This document shows positions 1-9,206 of a stretch of DNA of 9,206 bases, in pieces. The stretch covers positions 1-9,206 of the IMG/VR virus record IMGVR_UViG_2534681940_000023. One strand, given 5' to 3'. The notes below the pieces were generated by a model, which did no database searches, was not told the origin of the DNA, and saw only the letters and a list, made by a program, of their open reading frames with translations. A program made the translations under genes and the position numbers. Numbering within the stretch: position 1 is the stretch's first letter; every line of letters starts with the position of its first letter. The stretch is from a virus (Duplodnaviria; Heunggongvirae; Uroviricota; Caudoviricetes).

Positions 1-108
1 AGGACACGCCCCTGCATAAACAGGGGCATCAGCTCTGAACCTGGCCTGAACAATACGATCCCCATACGCGGGGCAATTTCAGGGGTCAGTAGTGCTCTCA
101 CGGTCACC

Positions 109-918
109 TCAATGAACGGTATCGAGCAGCTTTAACAGCTCAGGGAATCGGGATTCGAAGAAATGCGGCTGCGTCTCGCGCGGATTTGCGGGACTGGTGA
201 TGTTCTTGCCGAACATGCAGCCTTTCGCTGTCAGCGACCAGAATTTTTTGATGTTGTTAATCGCGGTACGGCTGTATCGTTCGCGCTGCTCGACGATCCC
301 CAGCTTCACCATCTGGTGATATGCCTGATTAGCTGTCAGGCGGATACCATACTGCTTCAGCAGTGCACTCAGTGACAGCGTGGGACGGCTTGAGCCATCA
401 GGCGCGTCAGCAGGAGCATCAATGGCATAGCGCGGTGCCAGATTCGGTAAGCCAACAGCCTCCTGGAGTTTCTGACAGGCACCAAGCACTGAAGAGTTAG
501 ACAGGTTTAACTCCCGGCGCATAAAGTCCAGCAGAATCACGCCAGCCTGCATCTTGTCAGCAGCCTGCCCGGATAATTTTTCCGGTGCGCTGGTTACCAT
601 ATCGAAAGTACGGATCACCTTCAGATGGAATGACGGGCTGATCCACATTGCATAGGCATACACCAGTTCCTTGCAGACATACGTTCCCCGTTCATTTCCC
701 CCATGAATCACACTCACCGGGTCAACACCCAAATTCTGGGTGTTGGTCAATTCATGAACAAGCTCAGCAGTCTGTTGGCTGGAAAGAAACTTTCCTGGCT
801 CCTTGGTTCTGGCATTTGCACCAGATGCTACTGCTGCGCGATGCAGATCGTTCAGGCTGTAACGCCCATAAGCATCACGACGAACTTCAATACCATCAAT
901 GACCATCAGATTATTCAT
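109..918 (-). CDS. KilA-N domain protein with antirepressor-like C-terminal half (269 aa)
   Basis: Track ORF 109..1020 begins at a TTG inside rusA, so I trimmed it to the ATG at 918-916, which follows GAGGAG (minus strand ...gatcaagaggagaaacgaagtATG). The N-terminal part (YSLNDLHRAA...GTYVCKELVYAYAMWISPSFHLKVIRTFD) fits the KilA-N pattern. The C-terminal half resembles phage antirepressor KilAC-type regions. Stop is TGA at 111-109. Confidence 0.8.
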   Translation of the reverse strand: MNNLMVIDGIEVRRDAYGRYSLNDLHRAAVASGANARTKEPGKFLSSQQTAELVHELTNTQNLGVDPVSVIHGGNERGTYVCKELVYAYAMWISPSFHLKVIRTFDMVTSAPEKLSGQAADKMQAGVILLDFMRRELNLSNSSVLGACQKLQEAVGLPNLAPRYAIDAPADAPDGSSRPTLSLSALLKQYGIRLTANQAYHQMVKLGIVEQRERYSRTAINNIKKFWSLTAKGCMFGKNITSPANPRETQPHFFESRFPELLKLLDTVH

Positions 919-937
919 ACTTCGTTTCTCCTCTTGA

Positions 938-1327
938 TCAGGCGGCTGCACCCGCCGTTTTCTCGTACTTACTGATAGTGATCTCGACCTTCCCTCCCGG
1001 GATAACCGGTCCCCACTCAACCAGCATTCTTTTCACCTGACTGTCGTCTTCCCACACACCCGCATGGGTCAGGGCGTCAAACAGCGCCTTGTTATAGTTG
1101 TCCAGATCGCGGATCCGGTTATCCGGCGGAAACAACACGATCTCCACTGAAGCAGGTGCCGACGTTGGTTTCGGCAGACGACGTAACTGCTCAACTATTG
1201 CTGCACACGCCGCGCTCTGGAATTTGCGCCCCGCCGCGCTTATCAGGCTCTTACCTGCAAACGCCCCTTTGTTGGGGTGTCGCCAGTACGTGTTCACGCT
1301 GGGCGGAAAAGGCAGGATCAGCTTCAT
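938..1327 (-). CDS. rusA: RusA-family Holliday junction resolvase (129 aa)
   Basis: MKLILPFPPSVNTYWRH...RIRDLDNYNKALFDALTHAGVWEDDSQV... matches the RusA layout (PPS-N-Y-R N-terminus, DLDN acidic motif, DD-Q-V). Its ATG overlaps the upstream stop as ATGA (1324-1327). The nin-region position next to a methylase is typical of lambdoid phages. Confidence 0.9.
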   Translation of the reverse strand: MKLILPFPPSVNTYWRHPNKGAFAGKSLISAAGRKFQSAACAAIVEQLRRLPKPTSAPASVEIVLFPPDNRIRDLDNYNKALFDALTHAGVWEDDSQVKRMLVEWGPVIPGGKVEITISKYEKTAGAAA

Positions 1328-1650
1328 ACTTTCAGGCCCCTCTCATGTAACCAGTGGGTTGCACGCAGCCTTGCGTTTTCCTCACCGGCAAGCAGTGCGC
1401 GGATAATCCCGACCGCCTCGCTGTCGTCGTCCTTCACCGCGGTATGAAGCGTTATCCCCCGGGCCACGCCACGCTTTATCGTGATGACGCCTTTTTTCTC
1501 CAGTGCGCGAAGATGCTCCACCGCTGCATTCACCGAACGGTATCCCAGCATGGTTGCCACCTCCTGATTGGTTGGCGGGAAGCCACGTTCTTTCTGATAA
1601 GAAATCAGCATATCCAACACCTGCTGCTGGCATTGAGTTAACGTCGTCAT
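1324..1650 (-). CDS. LexA N-terminal DNA-binding-domain-only protein (108 aa, no S24 peptidase domain)
   Basis: By-eye alignment to the E. coli LexA winged-helix domain: LexA [34 protein letters not shown] versus here PPTNQEVATMLGYRSVNAAVEHLRALEKKGVITI. The ORF ends about 35 residues later, so there is no Ala-Gly site and no Ser/Lys protease domain. ATGA overlaps occur at both ends (1647-1650 and 1324-1327). SD AGGGAG lies about 8 nt upstream. Confidence 0.8.
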   Translation of the reverse strand: MTTLTQCQQQVLDMLISYQKERGFPPTNQEVATMLGYRSVNAAVEHLRALEKKGVITIKRGVARGITLHTAVKDDDSEAVGIIRALLAGEENARLRATHWLHERGLKV

Positions 1651-2300
1651 GCCGCCATCTCCCTTACCAGTTTTTCTGCCTGCTGGCGAACCTGCGCCAG
1701 AAAGGCCTCACCACATGCCTCAAGTTCATCGCGCCCGATGTAGCTGATTGCCGGTCCCTTCCAGGTCTTGTCGAAAACAGCAATAGCACCAGCGAAGAAA
1801 GCGCCTGTCGGCACCTGCTTCTCATCCTTCGGGATAAACCAGGCAGGCAGTTCAAAACCAATACGCCCGCGAATAAAAGCAATATGATCTGCATCTTCCG
1901 GCCACCACACTTCGCTGGTGGCAGCTTTGATCAGGAAAACATAGCGCCCGCCTTTATCACGCATGGCACTGGCATGCTTCATGATGTAACGCATGCCGGT
2001 GATGTATTGCCCCTCATGCTGACTGGCGCGGCTGTATGGGGGATTACCAAAGGCAGCACCTTTAAGCTCCGCAAGACGTTCTGACCAGTCATGCGCCAGC
2101 GCGTTGTCTTCCGCCGTGTAATACGCGGCACATTTGGCGTTATCACCGTCAGTGAACAGATCCAGAACAAACGGACCAAACAAGGTGTTAATTCCCCAGA
2201 AAATGTTGTCCGGCGTGCGCCACTGATCGCCCACTTCCTTCAGTTCATGGGCTGGTTTGTTCCGCAGTTCTACCAGCGCCTGGCAATATTTATTACTCAT
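1647..2300 (-). CDS. Phage-type DNA N6-adenine methyltransferase (217 aa)
   Basis: It has the DQWRTP motif near the N-terminus and the catalytic FGNPPYS (NPPY) motif, as in the phage Dam methyltransferase family (YfdM-like). The start ATG at 2300 overlaps the upstream stop as TAATG. The stop overlaps the next start as ATGA. Confidence 0.85.
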   Translation of the reverse strand: MSNKYCQALVELRNKPAHELKEVGDQWRTPDNIFWGINTLFGPFVLDLFTDGDNAKCAAYYTAEDNALAHDWSERLAELKGAAFGNPPYSRASQHEGQYITGMRYIMKHASAMRDKGGRYVFLIKAATSEVWWPEDADHIAFIRGRIGFELPAWFIPKDEKQVPTGAFFAGAIAVFDKTWKGPAISYIGRDELEACGEAFLAQVRQQAEKLVREMAA

Positions 2301-2392
2301 TAAGCCCCCACGTAAAAAGCATCCGCAATGTCTCCGGAAGTACAGCCCGGATGGGCTTCAATGAATTTCTGAACGTCATTTAACAGACTCAT
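2300..2392 (-). CDS. 30-aa ORF (MSLLNDVQKFIEAHPGCTSGDIADAFYVGA), possibly the N-terminal fragment of a winged-helix protein
   Basis: It is below the ORF-track size cutoff and I found it by reading the minus strand. The ATG at 2392-2390 follows GGGGGTGATC and lies 2 nt after the replication-gene stop. Its TAA overlaps the methylase ATG (TAATG). The peptide resembles the first helices of small wHTH proteins but stops after 30 residues. Confidence 0.3.
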   Translation of the reverse strand: MSLLNDVQKFIEAHPGCTSGDIADAFYVGA

Positions 2393-2394
2393 GA

Positions 2395-3375
2395 TCACCC
2401 CCTGAATCCTGCCGGGATCTGGCTGTAGTCCACGTTGTCGTAACTGGCTTTGAAGTACGGGTCTTCACGTTTTTCTATGTGCGTGCTGACGGACGGCGAT
2501 AAGCGCAGGGAAAGCTCATCCCATTTTTCCCGCAACTTCGACGGGCTGAGCACGTTACGGCACCAGAACGGATCGCGGCTGACGCGGCTGTACATCTCGC
2601 AGATTTGTTTGTGAGTACGACCATCCTGCACACACATCAGGCGAATTTCGTTTGCCCATGCTGTCCAGTTCGGTTCTTTGGGACGAACCACCTCGCCGTC
2701 ACATTCGGCGGCCTGCTCGTACAGGGCGATGATTTTTTTCCAGAGCCACTGTGCGCAGGTCAAATCATCCTGCGTTCCCCACTGGCGCTTTTTAGGGCTG
2801 AATACAACCGCATCAGGATGGCGAGTTAAAAACTCCTGTTCAGCCGTTTGCGTGTCCGGTTGCGAAGCGTCCGGACGAGAAGAGGTTTTATTCTCTGTAG
2901 TAATCTCTGTTGTATTCTCTGTAAGATCGAAATTGGTTTTCCCTTCTCCGCGGCGAGGGGTTTCCCGTGTCCGCTGTGAAGGCTTTCCCTCCTCCGCGAA
3001 ATTGGGTTTTACAGTTTCCCGAAAACGGGTTTCCCCATTTCGGGAAAACTGATTGTTTTCATTGATAAGTTCATTAAGGCGCTCACAATCTATACGGTAG
3101 AACATTTTGTGCTCAAGACGCTTGTTGGTTTCAACCAAAATGCCTCTGGACACAAGATGCTTACGCGCTACAGCCTGTTGTTCAAATGTAAGTCCGGTTT
3201 CGTGTTGTATCTCTTCACGCGTTTTATGTACGCCTTCCGCTGCATGTGCTTTATCCTGCCAGTAAAAAATCTGACCAAAGAAAATAACAGCGTGCGGACT
3301 TCCCATGTATTTAACGAGCCCAGGGTAATAAGCAACCGGATGCCCAAAATCGAGCAGAAGATCAGACGGACGCAT
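2395..3375 (-). CDS. Replication initiator / replisome organizer, lambda O-like (YfdO-like C-terminus), 326 aa
   Basis: Track ORF starts at GTG 3381. The ATG at 3375-3373 has a better SD (GGGAGGTGGCT ATG). It has an N-terminal wHTH-like region, a low-complexity middle encoded by DNA iterons, and a conserved C-terminal region (WGTQDDLTCAQWLWKKI...PFWCRNVLSPSKLREKWDEL). Its position after the cII-like and Rha genes is as expected for a lambdoid O gene. Confidence 0.8.
   Translation of the reverse strand: MRPSDLLLDFGHPVAYYPGLVKYMGSPHAVIFFGQIFYWQDKAHAAEGVHKTREEIQHETGLTFEQQAVARKHLVSRGILVETNKRLEHKMFYRIDCERLNELINENNQFSRNGETRFRETVKPNFAEEGKPSQRTRETPRRGEGKTNFDLTENTTEITTENKTSSRPDASQPDTQTAEQEFLTRHPDAVVFSPKKRQWGTQDDLTCAQWLWKKIIALYEQAAECDGEVVRPKEPNWTAWANEIRLMCVQDGRTHKQICEMYSRVSRDPFWCRNVLSPSKLREKWDELSLRLSPSVSTHIEKREDPYFKASYDNVDYSQIPAGFRG
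2929..3050. repeat. Iteron array, putative phage origin of replication inside the O-like gene
   Basis: TTTCCC-centred units lie at 2938, 2961, 2984 (exactly 23 bp apart), 3015 and 3030, plus an inverted GGGAAA at 3042. Examples are GGTTTTCCCTTCTCCGCG, GGGTTTCCCGTGTCCGC, GGCTTTCCCTCCTCCGCG and TTTCCCGAAAACGGGTTTCCCCATTTCGGGAAAAC. The array is flanked at 2885-2925 by an AT-rich TCTCTGT x3 stretch. This mirrors lambda ori, which has iterons plus an AT-rich region within O. Confidence 0.55.
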
Positions 3376-3595
3376 AGCCACCTCCCAGACGCTTAAACAT
3401 TTTCCCGGACTGAAAAGCCACCAGCGGATAACTCAGGGTATGAGTACGCCCCTGAACCTGACAGACAACCTTCTGGCTTTCTGTGTTGACCAGACAAACC
3501 CGCAGAACGTGACCGTTGCTGGTGGTGAACCACTGCCCCACACGGGGGCAGTGGTTGTATCGGTGATACAGAGAATTCACAACACGACGAATCAT
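3362..3595 (-). CDS. Small phage protein, 77 aa, possibly DUF4222/SH3-like
   Basis: ATG at 3595 follows GGAGGTG and forms an ATGA overlap with the upstream ORF. The 3' end overlaps the O-like start by 14 nt. Its WF..G..LRV...Q.VV...G pattern resembles the 57-aa ORF at 5092-5265. Confidence 0.6.
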   Translation of the reverse strand: MIRRVVNSLYHRYNHCPRVGQWFTTSNGHVLRVCLVNTESQKVVCQVQGRTHTLSYPLVAFQSGKMFKRLGGGYASV

Positions 3596-3786
3596 GGACG
3601 CACCTCCGCCGTTGTGATGTATTTAACCGGGCTGCCTTTCATTGCGATGATTTCACACATCTCCGCTGCTTTACGTTCCGCTGTTTTCCTGGATTTATAG
3701 CGGCGGTGCCAAACAGACGTATCCGTGCGAACTGATACATCGTTTCTGTATTCCGTAGTGGAGATGATGATTTCGTAACTAATCAT
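3592..3786 (-). CDS. Hypothetical small phage protein, 64 aa
   Basis: ATG at 3786 follows a strong SD (AAGGAGGT, about 6 nt spacing). ATGA overlaps occur with Rha upstream (3783-3786) and the 77-aa ORF downstream (3592-3595). I recognise no family. Confidence 0.6.
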
Positions 3787-4346
3787 GGGCGTACCTCCTT
3801 GTCAGAACCATTCAGCCTGGAATCAACAAGTGCAGCACCAAAAACAGCATCACCTACACGGTCGTACAGTTTGCCAGCCAGCGGAGATTCAACAGCCTTA
3901 AGCATGGGATAAAGCTGGCTTCTCCAGATTTGATGGATTTCACGCAAATGCAGGTATACGCCTCTGGCGTTTTGTGCGACAGATGACATCTCAGCCGCAC
4001 CAGCTCCTGATAAGCTCCTCTCCATCTGGTTAAAGGCATTGATGTATGCCTCTTTGAACCGGGCGGCACGCTTGCCAGTGAAGCCCATAGCAAGGAATGC
4101 GAAGCCGTCGCGGGTGATTTGATAGCAGGGAAGTTTGCGAGTACCGCCGTTGGGCTGGCGTACCAAAATTGATGTCTCCGCAAAATTGCGGGCACAAAAC
4201 TCTGGAGAACAATCCAAAATGCGGATCTTTTTCAGAACATCGTCATGACGTTTAGAGAAGAAGTCAGCAACAGCCAAAGAAGATGTAACAGCCTGACCAT
4301 CAACGATGGCAATTTCAGGTTGAGAGAGAGTTGGGAAAGTAGTCAT
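3783..4346 (-). CDS. Rha-family phage regulatory protein (187 aa from the internal ATG)
   Basis: [41 protein letters not shown]...[35 protein letters not shown] is a typical Rha (pRha) domain, and Rha proteins start about 20 aa before the V-TS--VA--F-K-H--VL motif. The ATG at 4346-4344 has only a weak GGGG SD. The frame stays open upstream to 5444, so the true start is unresolved. Confidence 0.75.
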
Positions 4347-4638
4347 GGTGACAGCCCCTATGTTGAATTCAAAGAACTCACCACATGGGACGCCAATCAC
4401 AGAGGTGGTGAGACGTACAGGGTTGGCGTAACCGGTCAACATAGAACCCGGCGCATCTTGCGATGCCCCTGCACGCCCCACCATAATTTGGACGTAGCAA
4501 TGCTCATGATACGAAAAGACCGCATGAGCGCGGTTATGCTCTATATTGAATTCCAGGACGCCAATCCCGACACCCGCTTTATAAGGTGCCTGAACAGTGT
4601 AACGTCCCGAAATTGAGGAATCAATGTTTTGATAAAAT
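4347..4638 (-). other. Coding-like segment in frame with Rha but lacking its own canonical start
   Basis: Translation (...[88 protein letters not shown]) shows a strong G-at-codon-position-1 bias typical of real coding sequence. There is no ATG or SD between the ProQ-like stop (4639) and this segment. In-frame GTG codons at 4712 and 4709 have no SD. Confidence 0.3.
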
Positions 4639-5031
4639 TCAGCGATTAGACGCTTCTTTTCTACCCATATTAACTTTGAACAAGAGCTCCATACGACGAG
4701 TCCAGACACCACGTTCTTTGAGTTGTGCTCTGGCTTCTTCGCGCTCAGATACGGAAGTTCTGACAATACGATTTCCAGCCAGATTGCGGCGATATTCTCC
4801 AAACGCGACTGACTGAAGGTATGCAGCGGAGCTTTTGTACTGATAGATGGCTCTTCGAAGGCTGTTTTTATATTCCTTAGGTATATGTCCGAGATCGGCA
4901 AAAAGCTCATGAACGATATCGTGAACAAGCGGAACAACTTTGTATGGAATAACAAAGAAGCTTTCTGGATAGCGTTCAGCCAATACTTTAATGATTTCTT
5001 TATTTGCAAGATGCCTTGCTTTTCTTCCCAT
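4639..5031 (-). CDS. ProQ/FinO-domain RNA-binding protein (130 aa)
   Basis: ATG at 5031 has SD GGAGAA about 8 nt upstream. By-eye alignment to the E. coli ProQ N-terminal FinO-like domain: SSKEVIAFLAERFPHCF / [17 protein letters not shown]; LRSALRLYTSSWRYL / [15 protein letters not shown]; GATRVDLDGN / [10 protein letters not shown]; ARKQLEE / ARAQLKE. The gene is visibly more AT-rich than its neighbours. Confidence 0.8.
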
Positions 5032-5061
5032 ATACCATTCTCCATTACTCCAGATATCAGA

Positions 5062-5089
5062 ATGATATATCCAGGTTCAAGCAGTTCAA
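5062..5089 (-). promoter_or_regulatory. Candidate internal sigma70 promoter ahead of the ProQ/FinO-like gene
   Basis: The minus strand reads GCTTGAACTGCTTGAACC (tandem TTGAAC). The first TTGAAC (5089-5084) is followed by a 16-nt spacer and TATCAT (5067-5062). This lies just after the stop of the 57-aa ORF and about 30 nt before the ProQ-like ATG. It is a motif match only. Confidence 0.3.
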
Positions 5090-5091
5090 GC

Positions 5092-5265
5092 TTATGCTGG
5101 TGCTTCGCACTCAACAAAATCACGACGAAACAACCACAGCGGGCTGAAGCATTCATGCGGATAACCATCACGCAGGTAAATAACCCGCTGTGTTTCCGGT
5201 TCCCAACGAATGACTCTGACGGGCACTCCGTAGTGATCTTTGAACCAGCGGTTAACTTGTTGCAA
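5092..5265 (-). CDS. 57-aa TTG-initiated small protein, DUF4222-like ([57 protein letters not shown])
   Basis: It is absent from the ORF track because it is under 60 aa. TTG at 5265-5263 lies 8 nt after GAAGGAGA (revcomp of 5273-5280), and the frame is closed by a TGA just upstream. TAA is at 5094-5092. The V-YLRDGY---C--P--F---F pattern matches my recollection of the DUF4222 small phage protein family. It is in the same frame as the ProQ-like gene. Confidence 0.5.
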
Positions 5266-5444
5266 AGGACTGTCTCCTTCTGCCGGTTGAAATCACCCAC
5301 AGCCCACTCTGCAAATCTGTGGGTTACAATTTCCCTGTCACCTGGTACATTCACTGCATAGCAATACTCCACCTTCGCTTTTCCACCCGGTACAGGAAGC
5401 GCAATCAGTTGCGAGCGACGGTAGTGTGTTGTTAAACTGTTCAT
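5266..5444 (-). CDS. Start-proximal part of an ORF ([57 protein letters not shown]...); 3' end unresolved
   Basis: ATG at 5444-5442 follows GGAGAA and overlaps the CII-like stop as ATGA, so initiation is well supported. The first 60 or so codons look coding. There is no in-frame stop until 3783, so the end given here is only where a better-supported gene in another frame begins. Confidence 0.4.
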
Positions 5445-6082
5445 GCGTTAGTTTCTCCACAACCAGAAGCAATCGACGCCACGACGCCCGGAGCTGCACA
5501 CTCGCGGGCGTTACTCTTTTCCGGCGCACAAAAAACACGAAATAACAGTGTTAAATGCTCCTTCCACTTCGCCATTACTTGGTAGCTGTTCTCTTCGATT
5601 TGCTCACGCTCAGCCTGGTCAATAACTCCATCAGCAGTTGCCTTGCGTAAGTACTGGGAATGCTTGCCAATCCATTCTATTGACTCCATCAGCCGCTGAT
5701 TAATGTCACCATTGTCAATGTCATCAATGACCACCAGCGGCACAAACACCCCATTACTACGACGGGCTATTGCATCCGTTACATGCCTGGTACCACTGGC
5801 ATCCTGTAAAACCATGGCCCACTCAAGTGGAAAAATTTGATCCCCACCGCTACGCAGTCTGTTATGCAATTGATCTTTTGCTGGGGTGATATCATCAGAT
5901 TTATACAAACCAAGAATTTCTGCTGCTTCCTCATAGCCATGAGGTAAATCAGCAATCGTTCTTCGTATTGCTGCCACCAGCCATGCTGGTTGCTTATCAA
6001 CTTTCCATTCAGGTTCTTTACCCACGTTTAAGCCCTCATATCTGTGGTTTCTGTAAATCGATTTATCCATTAGATTTTTCAT
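5441..6082 (-). CDS. CII-like lysogeny regulator (phage 186 CII/CP76- or YdaT-type), about 213 aa
   Basis: It has the layout of CP76/YdaT-type CII analogues: an HTH-like region ([12 protein letters not shown]...), then ...[23 protein letters not shown]... and ...[28 protein letters not shown]. It lies immediately downstream of cro and overlaps it. The start is uncertain: ATG 6082 (MKNLMDKS), ATG 6070, or the track's GTG 6139. None has a strong SD. Confidence 0.7.
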
Positions 6083-6263
6083 AAAGCTCAGGTTTAAATG
6101 GCAACCGTCCGCAAGTTCTATATGCAGCCTCTGCTGCACGTCCTTTTGGAATTAACTGGCCAGGACGGTTTCGCCACTGATAAACGGCTTCAGTTGTTAT
6201 GCCGAAAAAAGCAGCAACTTTCTCAATGCTGCCGAAGTAGCTTTCGATATCGTCAGTCGTCAT
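6063..6263 (-). CDS. Cro/YdaS-type HTH regulator (66 aa)
   Basis: ATG at 6263 follows SD GGAGGG (revcomp of 6267-6272). The HTH IEKVAAFFGITTEAVYQWRNRPGQLIPKGRAAEAAYRTCGRL resembles YdaS/Cro family proteins. It is divergent from the repressor gene. Confidence 0.85.
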   Translation of the reverse strand: MTTDDIESYFGSIEKVAAFFGITTEAVYQWRNRPGQLIPKGRAAEAAYRTCGRLPFKPELYEKSNG

Positions 6264-6274
6264 ATGCCCTCCAA

Positions 6275-6339
6275 ACTAAGTTTTATTAGATGTTAATTAT
6301 CAATCTATCTTAGGTCAATAAAAACTAAGATTACTTAGT
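6275..6339. promoter_or_regulatory. OR-like operator cluster (three 16-bp sites)
   Basis: The sites are 6275-6290 ACTAAGTTTTATTAGA, 6299-6314 ATCAATCTATCTTAGG (weak left half) and 6324-6339 ACTAAGATTACTTAGT (perfect palindrome). Centre spacing is 24-25 bp, as in lambda OR1-3. The same ACTAAG-N4-NTTAGN motif recurs at 7016-7031 and 7052-7067. Confidence 0.6.
6290..6318 (-). promoter_or_regulatory. PR-like promoter for the cro operon
   Basis: The minus strand has TTGACC (6318-6313), a 17-nt spacer, and TAACAT (6295-6290), about 30 nt upstream of the cro ATG. The flanking operator sites overlap both the -35 and the -10/+1. Confidence 0.5.
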
Positions 6340-6360
6340 AATTAAAGAAATGGTGCTCCT

Positions 6361-6987
6361 ATGGAAACGGTTGGTCAGCGTATAAAAGCTCTGAGAAGAG
6401 TTACCAGAACGTCCCAGAAAGAATTGGGTAAATTTTGTGGAGTAAGTGACGTTGCTGTGGGGTACTGGGAGAAAGACATCAATGTCCCTGGTGGGGAAGC
6501 ACTTTCAAAATTAGCGAAGTTCTTCAATACGTCAATAGATTACATTCTTTATGGTGCGGAGTTTGAAGGCAAACTCGTCACAAACATGCGCAGAGTTCCT
6601 GTAATCTCGTGGGTTCAGGCTGGGCAGTTTACTGAGTGCAGGACAGCAGAAGTGTTTAGTGAAGTAGACAAGTGGGTAGATACATCATTAAAGATTGGTG
6701 ATAACTCATTTGCATTGGAGGTTAAAGGCGACTCCATGACTAACCCTAACGGCCTCCCAACAATACCAGAAGGCGCAACAGTGATTGTAGATCCTGATGC
6801 AGAACCCCGGCATGGAAAAATAGTCATCGCTAGACTTGATGGAACAAACGAAGCCACAGTAAAAAAATTAGTTATCGATGGCCCTCAAAAGTTTTTAGTG
6901 CCATTAAATCCCCGGTACCCCAACATTCCGATCAATGGTAATTGCCTCATCATTGGTGTAGTCAAAGGAGTTCAATACGAACTCTAG
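6361..6987 (+). CDS. CI-type prophage repressor, XRE HTH plus S24 (LexA-like) autopeptidase domain (208 aa)
   Basis: N-terminal HTH is QKELGKFCGVSDVAVGYWEKD. A cleavage-site-like VQAGQF is present. The catalytic Ser lies in KGDSMTNP and the Lys in ATVKKLV. It is divergent from cro, and a terminator follows directly. Confidence 0.9.
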   Translation: METVGQRIKALRRVTRTSQKELGKFCGVSDVAVGYWEKDINVPGGEALSKLAKFFNTSIDYILYGAEFEGKLVTNMRRVPVISWVQAGQFTECRTAEVFSEVDKWVDTSLKIGDNSFALEVKGDSMTNPNGLPTIPEGATVIVDPDAEPRHGKIVIARLDGTNEATVKKLVIDGPQKFLVPLNPRYPNIPINGNCLIIGVVKGVQYEL

Positions 6988-7005
6988 CCCCCCTTTTCTC
7001 TAACC

Positions 7006-7042
7006 AAAACACCGAACTAAGAAAAGTTTGGTGTTTTCTCTT
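7006..7042 (+). terminator. Intrinsic terminator after the repressor gene
   Basis: The stem is AAAACACCGAAC (7006-7017) paired with GTTTGGTGTTTT (7026-7037). That is 12 pairs including one G-U, with an 8-nt loop. The 3' arm ends in TTTT followed by CTCTT. It lies 19 nt after the cI stop. Confidence 0.6.
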
Positions 7043-7069
7043 GCCATCAAAACTAAGTTAAGTTAGATT
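7041..7069 (+). promoter_or_regulatory. PL-like promoter with embedded operator
   Basis: TTGCCA (7041-7046), a 17-nt spacer, and TAGATT (7064-7069). The operator-like ACTAAGTTAAGTTAGA (7052-7067) fills the spacer. A second site, ACTAAGAAAAGTTTGG (7016-7031), lies in the terminator loop and 3' arm. Confidence 0.45.
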
Positions 7070-7164
7070 TTATATCAAAGATAACGAACAGGCAGGACGC
7101 CCACGAAGTAGCCGACGGTGGCGTATGAATGACCGGATGATTCGCGCATGGCAGGAGAGTGAAT

Positions 7165-7533
7165 ATGGATGGCAGTATCGACAACCAACGAGATGCCTGG
7201 CTTGTGGTGATTGAAGCAGCAAAAACTGCATTAAGCCAAGTTGAAAGCAGTAACTACAGAACAGTTAAACAAATGGCTTTGGGCTCTATTATCTATGCCT
7301 TTGAAAGGCTGGACTTTGATTTTGAAGCAACGAGTATTCTGTCAGAACAACATGAAAAAATGAATAGAGAAGACGCCGCAGCCTATATCGGCGTAGAAGC
7401 GCAAACCTTAGCTAATTGGGCTAGCACAGGAAAAGTTCGAATACCTTTTTTAAAAATCGGTAGAAAGGTTATTTACCTAAAAAGTGATCTTGATGCCTAT
7501 CTTGCCTCATCGAAGGCAAATACCACCAAGTAG
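7165..7533 (+). CDS. First early-left gene: protein with C-terminal excisionase/MerR-type HTH (122 aa)
   Basis: Track start GTG 7159 is only 1 nt from AGGAG (7153-7157). The ATG at 7165 is 7 nt away, so I prefer it. The C-terminal REDAAAYIGVEAQTLANWASTGKVRIPFLKIGRKVIYLKSDLDAYL fits the excisionase-family HTH. I do not recognise the N-terminal 70 or so aa. Confidence 0.7.
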   Translation: MDGSIDNQRDAWLVVIEAAKTALSQVESSNYRTVKQMALGSIIYAFERLDFDFEATSILSEQHEKMNREDAAAYIGVEAQTLANWASTGKVRIPFLKIGRKVIYLKSDLDAYLASSKANTTK

Positions 7534-7741
7534 CTCACGTACCTACCACCTCGCCTGATGTGGCTAAAAGCAGGCACATAACAGCTAAGTATTTTCAACC
7601 AGAGAGAATCCTTAGCGTTGTGGTGAATGCGGCTCAGCGCACGCGGGTTAAGGTTGAGACTGACAGTCGACCTTCTGTGGATACCCACCCGCCTGGTGTG
7701 CAACCTTCGCCAGGCACCGGGAGGCACCCGGCACCACAACA

Positions 7742-7799
7742 GCCACTGCTTTGGCGGTACCAGTTTGTACACTTGCTTCCGGCTGGTACCGCTCTTTTT
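7742..7799 (+). ncRNA. DicF-like sRNA candidate (5' end approximate)
   Basis: The core TTTGGCGGTACCAGTTTGTAC (7750-7770) closely matches my recollection of K-12 DicF, TTTGGCGGTATCAGTTTTAC. It has a similar architecture, with the GGCGG arm opening a hairpin that ends in a U-tract. Like dicF in Qin, it sits in the repressor-controlled operon opposite cro. The 5' part differs from K-12 DicF. Confidence 0.45.
7753..7799 (+). terminator. Intrinsic terminator (3' end of the DicF-like RNA) inside the early-left operon
   Basis: GGCGGTACCAG (7753-7763) pairs with CTGGTACCGCT (7783-7793). That is 10 Watson-Crick pairs plus one G-U, with a 19-nt loop, followed by C and TTTTT (7795-7799). Confidence 0.6.
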
Positions 7800-7893
7800 A
7801 CAAAACAGAGAAGAGCATCACCGGACGACGGGCTCATAACCCAATCCACCCGGGCGGCTGCCACCGCAGGTGCTCTTCTCTGTTTTGTGGAGA
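7795..7893 (+). other. Long RNA hairpin: 17-bp perfect inverted repeat, extendable to about 25 pairs
   Basis: CAAAACAGAGAAGAGCA (7801-7817) is the exact reverse complement of TGCTCTTCTCTGTTTTG (7871-7887). G-U and A-U pairs extend it outward to 7795/7893 and inward to 7819/7869. The roughly 50-nt apical region can form small CCGG/CCGG, GGG/CCC and GCGG/CCGC helices. Confidence 0.6.
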
Positions 7894-7936
7894 AACCAAC
7901 CGACCTTGCAGGGTCGATATGATGAGGAGCAGCAAA

Positions 7937-8299
7937 ATGGCTAGCGAACGCAGTACTGATGTGCAGGCATTTATCGGGGAGCTGGACGGCGGCGTATTTG
8001 AAACCAAAATCGGCGCTGTTCTCAGTGAAGTCGCTTCAGGTGTGATGAACACGAAAACCAAAGGGAAGGTCTCGCTCAACCTGGAAATCGAACCGTTTGA
8101 TGAGAACCGTGTGAAAATAAAACACAAACTCTCATATGTTCGTCCGACTAACCGCGGGAAAATTTCCGAAGAAGACACCACCGAAACGCCGATGTATGTC
8201 AATCGCGGTGGTCGCCTGACTATTCTGCAGGAAGACCAGGGACAATTACTGACTCTTGCCGGTGAACCTGACGGAAAACTCCGCGCAGCAGGTCATTAA
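7937..8299 (+). CDS. yfdP: YfdP-like prophage protein (120 aa)
   Basis: Track ORF 7751..8299 is trimmed to the ATG at 7937, which lies 7 nt after GAGGAG (7924-7929). The upstream part of the track ORF runs through the hairpin region. The 120-aa product MASERSTDVQAFIGELDGG... matches the length of K-12 CPS-53 YfdP and, as far as I recall, its sequence. It is followed by a yfdQ-like gene as in K-12. The symbol is from memory. Confidence 0.75.
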   Translation: MASERSTDVQAFIGELDGGVFETKIGAVLSEVASGVMNTKTKGKVSLNLEIEPFDENRVKIKHKLSYVRPTNRGKISEEDTTETPMYVNRGGRLTILQEDQGQLLTLAGEPDGKLRAAGH

Positions 8300-8364
8300 T
8301 ATCGTTCTTAATTAACTGATTATTTATCTCATCACTGAATATCCTTATATAGTGAGGACTTATT

Positions 8365-9189
8365 ATGTCTCAGAACTTAGACGCAACCGCAATTAATCAA
8401 ATCCATGCCCTTATTTCTGCTCAGGGTGTTAATGAAATTATTAGTAAGATTGGTGCCGATGCTGTGGCATTGCCTGAGAATTTCCGCATTCATGATCTGG
8501 AAAAATTTAATTTAAATCGCTTCCGTTTCCGTGGTGCGCTTTCCACTGCCAGCATCGATGACTTTACCCGTTATTCTAAAGATCTTGCAGATGAAGGCAC
8601 CCGCTGCTTTATCGATGCCGATAATATGCGTGCCGTCAGTGTGCTTAACCTGGGTACTATTGATGAACCAGGTCACGCAGATAACACCGCCACTCTCAAA
8701 CTGAAAAAGACAGCACCGTTCTCTGCTCTGTTGTCTGTTAATGGCGAGCGTAACTCCCAAAAGTCACTGGCAGAATGGATTGAAGACTGGGCCGACTACC
8801 TTGTGGGCTTTGATGCTAATGGTGACGCCATTCAGGCAACCAAAGCGGCTGCGGCGATCCGTAAAATCACAATTGAAGCGAACCAGACCGCTGATTTTGA
8901 AGACAATGACTTCAGCGGCAAACGCTCCCTGATGGAGTCTGTCGAAGCGAAGACCAAAGACATTATGCCAGTGGCATTTGAATTTAAATGCGTTCCGTTT
9001 GAAGGCCTGAAAGAACGTCCGTTTAAATTACGCCTCAGCATTATCACTGGCGATCGTCCTGTACTGGTTCTGCGCATTATTCAGCTGGAAGCGGTGCAGG
9101 AAGAAATGGCTAACGAATTTCGTGATCTGCTTGTTGAGAAATTTAAAGACAGCAAAGTAGAAACCTTTATTGGTACTTTCACCGCCTGA
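8365..9189 (+). CDS. yfdQ: YfdQ-like DUF2303 prophage protein (274 aa)
   Basis: The ATG at 8365 follows GTGAGGA. The 274-aa product has the same length as K-12 YfdQ and is in the same gene order after yfdP. Codon usage is clean and no competing ORFs are present. The family assignment is from memory. Confidence 0.85.
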
Positions 9190-9206
9190 TTTCATTACTG
9201 CAAATG

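Follow-up and report, generated by a model that had tools for sequence, protein, structure and literature searches.

A stop-free reading frame leading from ymfL into a Rha-family gene through exchangeable cassettes and an isrK-C4 RNA module in e14/ST64B-like prophages

In P1, the short open reading frame (ORF) icd has been reported to be apparently required for expression of ant. In Gifsy-1, translation of orf45 is required for expression of anrP, and it is the nucleotide sequence of orf45, not its amino-acid sequence, that is conserved (Hershko-Shalev et al. 2016, PMC4825925). In the e14 element of Escherichia coli K-12, filamentation (inhibition of cell division) was assigned to ymfM by cloning the whole ORF, which means both of two overlapping frames. 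Here we describe a locus in a 9,206-nucleotide (nt) stretch of viral DNA (Caudoviricetes; IMG/VR record IMGVR_UViG_2534681940_000023, positions 1 to 9,206; hereafter the window) whose parts are all of known kinds: ymfM, DUF4222, ProQ/FinO and a C4/IsrK-antirepressor switch. One minus-strand frame of the window, frame A (codon starts = 2 mod 3), has its sole stops at 5450 and 3785, and the ORF of 553 codons between them connects all of these parts (Table 1). We lean, with only slightly more confidence than doubt, towards reading frame A not as one ancestral gene but as a reading corridor that the e14/ST64B-like prophage group keeps free of stops, with the transit of ribosomes as the selected property.

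The ATG of the corridor lies within an ATGA (5444-5441) shared with the TGA of the preceding YmfL-family gene, a stop/start overlap directly after ymfL as in K-12. A DUF4222 gene and a ProQ/FinO-domain gene are both read in a second frame, frame B, and frame A is +1 relative to both. Between 5265 and 4639 there are four stops in frame B, 17 in the third frame and none in frame A. These counts confirm an earlier reading of the sequence by itself (the sequence-only reading), which had noted a 553-codon frame without stops, from 5444 to 3783, across two off-frame genes. Its estimate of the chance of this, of order e^-10, was too extreme for the window alone. Frame A remained without a stop in 3.4% of trials (P = 0.034) when synonymous codons were permuted within the DUF4222 and ProQ genes, in 0.34% (P = 0.0034) when the codon order of the same two genes was shuffled, and in 0.035% (P = 3.5e-4) when synonymous codons were resampled with the window's own usage. 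The +1 frames of the other genes in the window carry 0.02-0.09 stops per codon. Open off-frames are thus uncommon in shuffled sequences, which leaves the earlier reading standing, and for the window alone the openness of frame A is moderately unusual (P about 0.03 to 0.0004), not compelling. The conservative synonymous permutation, together with a P of 0.08-0.5 for the DUF4222 overlap alone, would suit the view that ymfM-N, DUF4222, ProQ and Rha are real genes and that the long frame is an untranslated, inherited accident, produced by chance and hitch-hiking.

Related loci were gathered by means of DUF4222 and a 19-mer at the 3′ end of the DUF4222 gene, and E. coli, phage and Salmonella records were added. 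Exact 19-mer scans of metagenome and genome collections yielded nearly all chance matches and one useful locus (L130). In 44 of 44 loci in which DUF4222 is followed by C4 (29 distinct sequences), frame A is uninterrupted by stops and shares its phase with both the C4 ATG and Rha, so that the relatives do not refute the sequence-only reading either. The open lengths in these loci range from 279 to 634 codons; in e14-type loci, frame A ends as the 112-amino-acid (aa) YmfM. The spacing between DUF4222 and C4 falls into nine classes (133, 148, 157, 604, 607, 823, 826, 883 and 1297 nt), all of them 1 mod 3, and the RNA modules measure 276, 282, 285 or 288 nt, all multiples of 3. Five types of content were observed in the interval: nothing inserted; ProQ in the sense orientation; an antisense pair of Gp49 toxin and helix-turn-helix (HTH) antitoxin; an antisense pair of TumE and an HVO_A0114-family protein (PF25212); and the Gp49 pair with an additional antisense SWIM gene. 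Over the inserted regions, the other two frames carry 7-32 stops. The corridor always starts at the stop of the preceding gene, through ATGA with ymfL or Lar, or through TAAttATG after a Rha-family regulator.

The codons of the Gp49 toxin, TumE and SWIM genes are read in register by frame A, and these genes contain zero TTA, CTA or TCA codons; this still holds for the SWIM gene, which has a GC content of 35%. Synonymous permutation within the gene is uninformative for these three genes (P = 1), since their lack of TTA, CTA and TCA is built into the test; codon resampling and a homologue control were used in its place. Resampling gave a probability of openness of 0.005-0.24 for each of the genes. 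A Salmonella copy of the Gp49 cassette in the same hotspot (72% aa identity) is open: its frame spans 634 codons between the ymfL and Rha stops. In a chromosome, a copy with 79% identity, located between fdhE and yiiD, has 8, 10 and 6 stops in its antisense frames and nine TTA, CTA or TCA codons, and another prophage context holds a copy whose corresponding frame contains one stop. An inherited accident could still draw on the ProQ cassette alleles, which are 97-100% identical and hence not independent. It fits poorly, however, with four unrelated cassettes and at least eight indel events that all keep phase and openness, with Gp49 cassettes that have diverged this far and are both open while a chromosomal homologue has 6-10 stops in each antisense frame, and with register-read antisense genes in which TTA, CTA and TCA do not occur. 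Chance was one of the explanations offered at the outset; the comparative data disfavour it, and we regard it as very unlikely.

The distribution of variable sites was used to ask which parts of frame A evolve as protein. At the upstream end, the corridor matches phrog_1170 (E = 2.9e-34 for positions 1-60 and 1.6e-17 for positions 61-108), is 95.6% identical in nucleotide sequence to K-12 e14 ymfM over 5511-5122, and shows 89% identity in its N-terminal region to the 112-aa protein P0001. Among YmfM homologues down to about 45% identity, the variable sites fall 24/18/40 on the three codon positions of the N-terminus. Frame A thus evolves as coding sequence over 5444-5271, as had been supposed, and by these comparisons the segment genuinely encodes the start of a YmfM-family protein (the e14 cell-division inhibitor). 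YmfM homologues are 112-117 aa long and end before the next gene; the corridor did not fit this length, having no stop until codon 554.

Beyond this point the constraint lies in frame B. The DUF4222 gene is wholly overprinted by frame A, over about 55 frame-A codons, and its variable sites number 25/29/49 of 52 at the three frame-B positions. K-12 ymfM has the same overlap, as do all the diverged YmfM homologues that were compared, and the frame-A peptides over DUF4222 differ radically between lineages. As judged from these alignments, the amino-acid constraint in the overlap is that of DUF4222 only, yet frame A is open in all lineages. Over the five ProQ cassette alleles, 12 of 16 variable sites are at frame-B third positions, which are frame-A second positions; frame A is therefore free of protein constraint over the ProQ cassette. 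The sequence-only reading was right to place two real genes in frame B; it had overlooked the YmfM identity of the N-terminus and the crossing of unlike and antisense cassettes in relatives.

These patterns bear on the suggestion, also made at the outset, that frame A encodes a genuine long overprinted protein with a functional sequence over 5265-4639. The 553-codon ORF does exist as a deposited record (EHU99037.1, hypothetical protein, E. coli DEC4C, of which the window is a contig), a 554-aa variant occurs on 33 contigs under the label 'immunity protein', and parts of the ORF have PHROG and Pfam families. However, variation over DUF4222 and ProQ is concentrated on frame-A second codon positions, the frame-A peptides are not maintained between lineages, the cassette translations in frame A have no family matches, and unrelated sequence replaces this segment in relatives. 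A functional protein of this kind is extremely improbable.

The ProQ cassette itself lies between the end of DUF4222 and the -35 element of the candidate isrK promoter, in phase and stop-free in frame A. Alignment to the ProQ-less locus L003 places its junctions between ...SAKHQH and IDS... of the frame-A translation, so that the proposal of a module inserted in frame was borne out: the cassette is a 468-nt, in-phase insertion relative to relatives that lack ProQ. It was found in 14 of 5426 complete E. coli genomes, and a word-index protein search for relatives of the ProQ protein returned one cluster (97% identical) plus three IMG/VR loci, a set too shallow in evolutionary terms to follow the +1 frame into other contexts. 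The number of promoter-like sites in the region did not exceed shuffle expectation in a promoter scan, and the promoter call in the DUF4222/ProQ spacer is therefore weak. Within this same spacer, at about 5078 (minus strand), three A's are missing from the window, although all seven other cassette loci have them, as does the 554-aa variant from the 33 contigs; the deletion lies within an A-run, inside the spacer of the promoter-like site, and preserves phase. The cassette places a FinO/ProQ-domain RNA chaperone gene directly 5′ of the isrK/C4 antisense-RNA switch, and because of this adjacency the ProQ-like protein may be a dedicated chaperone for the isrK and C4 RNAs.

Downstream of the cassette, residues 282-376 of frame A match the Pfam family PF10554 (Phage_ASH) with 44.4 bits against a cut-off of 26. 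The DNA of this 'Ash' segment (4637-4347, minus strand) consists of the candidate isrK promoter, the isrK and C4 RNA genes and the C4 target sites. The promoter candidate is sigma-70-like and ends 7 nt before the 5′ end of isrK, its frame-A translation is the conserved motif 'IDSxISGRYTV', and it is kept at the right-hand junction of every cassette. It was called from the sequence and its conservation, because the promoter scan did not exceed shuffle expectation; Gifsy-1 has a promoter at the corresponding position (PMC4825925). A terminator scan found an intrinsic terminator in isrK (hairpin 4534-4519, followed by a T-run), and isrK also contains the sites a1 (4564-4558) and b1 (4549-4541). 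The C4 loop CUAUGUUGA is complementary to b1 and to b2, TCAACATAG (4366-4358), which adjoins the GGGG Shine-Dalgarno sequence of Rha (4358-4355). Direct comparison of the loop with the sites showed coordinated change: across loci, loop, b1 and b2 form six covarying specificity types. Pairing of the entire C4 with its flanking sequence, computed with RNAduplex, was no different from that of shuffles. In ten RNA modules, the variable columns fall 51/53/52 on the three frame-A codon positions, without periodicity. The segment 4638-4347, previously described as coding-like, is therefore not protein-coding, and is instead a promoter and two RNA genes. The PF10554 'Ash' family may itself be, largely, a translated RNA module.

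Annotation of relatives by the Prokaryotic Genome Annotation Pipeline (PGAP) includes calls of 'ash family protein', an ATC start for a 'Rha family' protein in L001, and an 'ash' pseudogene over c4 in a P1-like plasmid (L150, 1990-2220). An E. coli prophage of strain N96 (L002, 2129-3336) has three isrK-C4 modules in tandem, of which the first two lie in one 580-codon frame and the third has its own ATG (MIRQHIDS), coupled to the preceding stop.

The Rha-family gene at the end of the corridor scores 92.5 bits against PF09669 (cut-off 29.9) and 89.9 bits against TIGR02681 (cut-off 45.95), and its variable sites fall 30/19/68 on the three codon positions. On this evidence, together with the b2 site at its Shine-Dalgarno sequence, Rha is a real gene with its own, C4-masked start, and by its parts the switch is of the P1 immI and Gifsy-1 isrK-orf45-anrP type. 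An ATG at 4484, in the 5′ end of C4, is the counterpart of the AUG that opens Gifsy-1 orf45 and shares its frame with Rha. It is conceivable that only this short, known arrangement operates, translation starting at ATG 4484 or at the Rha ATG on transcripts from the isrK promoter, and that frame A further upstream is irrelevant. The Gifsy-1 model, with its isrK promoter, its orf45 AUG in the 5′ end of C4 and its coupling to anrP, provides a direct precedent. This would leave unexplained that, ahead of isrK, no cassette interrupts the frame or shifts its phase. It also sits uneasily with isrK-C4 modules outside this operon (in Gifsy-1, after Q, and in strain E2855), where the frame in phase with the antirepressor gene does carry stops. 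P1-like plasmids have the short icd as their upstream ORF. We consider the short arrangement by itself unlikely.

The corridor might instead be translated as one protein, Rha being made as a fusion to a YmfM-like or other N-terminus the middle being tolerated as a variable linker. In favour of this, the two ends evolve as protein, the corridor and the Rha ATG share one phase in every case and do not simply lie side by side, and the whole ORF is annotated as a single protein in ST64B (sb41) and in the PGAP call for STEC316. Nevertheless, the N-terminus varies: the corridors of the L001 and L018 contexts begin only 4-6 codons before DUF4222 and have no YmfM domain. A linker of 150-430 unconstrained residues that includes translated RNA genes would make an implausible protein, and Rha has a C4-regulated ribosome-binding site and ATG of its own. 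We judge such a fusion to be quite unlikely.

Most junctions of the surrounding operon overlap, four as ATGA; those from the end of Rha onwards are at 3786/3783, where the Rha TGA overlaps the ATG of the next ORF, and at 3595/3592, 1650/1647 and 1327/1324 (109-3786, minus strand), and the largest gap between genes is 94 nt (2395-2300). These junctions fit an operon dependent on unbroken translation. If the corridor were absent, untranslated gaps of 175, 60 and 293 nt would appear in the early transcript of the window, and in relatives a gap of up to about 1.4 kb including an intrinsic terminator. The YmfM frame of e14-type loci likewise leaves no more than about 10 nt before the next gene.

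Because phase and openness are universally kept while the amino-acid sequence is not conserved, we favour the ribosome-track reading of the corridor; the comparisons suggest that openness and phase are under selection, that the encoded sequence is not, and that the passage of ribosomes is the target. Ribosomes would be loaded at the start coupled to the ymfL stop, on the early, repressor-controlled transcript. They would pass the YmfM-like domain and then DUF4222 and whatever moron cassette is present, without amino-acid constraint, before crossing the isrK promoter, the isrK RNA with its terminator, C4, and the masking C4 target at the Rha ribosome-binding site, and would finish in phase in Rha. 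Their transit would melt the isrK terminator and the C4/target structures, and would keep ribosomes on several hundred bases that otherwise go untranslated, which would prevent both the intrinsic terminator and Rho from stopping transcription before the replication genes. It would also yield a protein with the Rha domain, free of C4 control. For transcripts that start at the isrK promoter, IsrK/C4 control would persist, as in P1 immI and Gifsy-1. Suppression of the isrK terminator and of Rho-dependent polarity, and the C4-independent production of Rha, are what known principles and the orf45 and icd precedents would predict.

Several points weigh against the ribosome-track reading. Entry of ribosomes at 5444 and their transit along the corridor are deduced from sequence comparison only, and for the window alone the conservative null model stops at P = 0.03. 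Anti-termination alone does not need an in-frame fusion with Rha; Gifsy-1 uses a short, AUGA-coupled ORF. Some relatives have a start codon near the module boundary ('MIISRPNIDS', 'MIRQHIDS'), so that evolving a new start would seem an alternative to keeping cassettes stop-free. To rid a cassette that has just been inserted of several stops would be difficult for evolution. Many of the 44 loci have common ancestry, which leaves about a dozen events that are truly independent. Finally, Edwardsiella ictaluri (L142/L143, 2001-2676) has a Gp49/HTH cassette of 88% identity, in antisense orientation upstream of a Rha gene; one of its antisense frames has no stop from end to end of the cassette but meets one 18 nt further on. 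This arrangement may be a remnant or a variant of the corridor layout.

At the upstream end of the operon, the real start of the YmfL-family gene is probably downstream of 6139. The annotated K-12 ymfM (L004, e14, 4323-4678, equivalent to window 5444-5092) holds a complete DUF4222 ORF in its -1 frame, and only the DUF4222 frame is periodic in the overlap. Some database proteins fuse YmfM to DUF4222; programmed -1 frameshifting between them was considered and rejected, the fusion junctions all being different and mostly from raw-read assemblies, with no evident slippery site. Two genes downstream of Rha, a 77-aa ORF (3362-3595, minus strand) is a weak second DUF4222-like protein (E = 0.04). An STnc100-like small RNA match (7599-7801, plus strand) scored 36.3 bits, under the family gathering score of 47.

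Table 1. Features of the corridor locus, in window coordinates
Feature	Coordinates	Strand	Evidence and details
YmfL-family (CII-like) gene	5441..6139	-	NCBIfam NF041471, 3.5e-53; phrog_101
Stop-free frame A (553-codon corridor ORF)	3783..5444	-	ATG 5444, end 3783
YmfM-like N-terminal 58 codons, frame A	5271..5444	-	phrog_1170; identity to e14 ymfM; codon periodicity
DUF4222 gene, frame B	5092..5265	-	Pfam PF13973, 1.6e-17, 63.2 bits against 27; TTG start, GGAGA Shine-Dalgarno
ProQ cassette, 468 nt	4626..5093	-	Alignment to ProQ-less L003; spacing classes
Promoter-like site in DUF4222/ProQ spacer	5062..5089	-	TTGAAC-16-TATCAT; weak
ProQ/FinO-domain gene, frame B, 130 aa	4639..5031	-	Pfam PF04352, 1e-13, 51.7 bits against 27
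Candidate isrK promoter	4596..4624	-	TTGATT 4624-4619, 17-nt spacer, TACACT 4601-4596, +1 near 4589
isrK-type RNA gene	4513..4589	-	Rfam RF01394, 54.1 bits against gathering score 50
C4 antisense RNA gene	4401..4488	-	Rfam RF01695, 80.1 bits against gathering score 45, E 6e-15, full length 1-87
C4 target sites	4355..4396	-	a2 4396-4390; b2 4366-4358
Rha-family (antirepressor-like) gene	3783..4346	-	Own ATG 4346; Pfam PF09669, 2.5e-26; TIGR02681

A limited literature search found no description of a conserved stop-free corridor across interchangeable sense and antisense cassettes. If ribosome transit is indeed what is selected, the locus would provide a clear natural example in which selection acts on the openness of a reading frame itself, strongly enough to constrain the synonymous codons of unrelated cargo genes on the opposite strand, and would link translation-coupled read-through to the C4/IsrK antirepressor switch, which about 4,250 of 5,426 complete E. 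coli genomes carry. To the fuller proposition we give roughly even credence: a frame of several hundred codons held purely as a ribosome track, which any cassette must join in phase and without stops, which has reshaped the codon usage of its cargo, and which crosses two RNA genes catalogued as Ash. In practical terms, annotations as 'Ash family' seem to reflect translated RNA genes, gene callers switch between suppressing DUF4222 and ProQ and suppressing the long ORF, and the published division-inhibitor phenotype of e14 ymfM is not attributed to one of its two overlapping frames.

Each of the known systems resembles part of the corridor. YmfM (SfiC) of e14 in E. coli K-12 likewise follows ymfL with ATGA, is homologous over its first ~108 residues and overlaps a DUF4222 ORF in its 3′ half; it stops at codon 113, 9 nt before ymfN, whereas the corridor lacks that stop and continues for 553 codons into Rha. 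Phage_ASH (PF10554) is a family whose hidden Markov model frame A matches, although the matched DNA here evolves without codon periodicity. Overprinted same-strand phage genes and antisense 'shadow' ORFs also have two frames open on the same DNA, one free and one constrained; the corridor differs in conserving openness and phase across unrelated, swappable inserts, including codon-restricted antisense genes. In the immI region of P1 and P7 (c4, icd, ant), translation of an upstream ORF is likewise tied to expression of ant; the short icd begins after c4 and overlaps the start of ant by 4 nt, whereas the corridor has its start hundreds of codons upstream of C4, runs across it and forms an in-frame fusion. 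Gifsy-1 isrK-orf45-anrP shares the pair of isrK and C4 upstream of an antirepressor-like gene and the orf45 AUG in the 5′ end of C4. There the module follows Q, orf45 has 45 codons and ends in AUGA, and the upstream frames carry stops, whereas in the window the ORF homologous to orf45 is in frame with Rha and extends upstream to ymfL.

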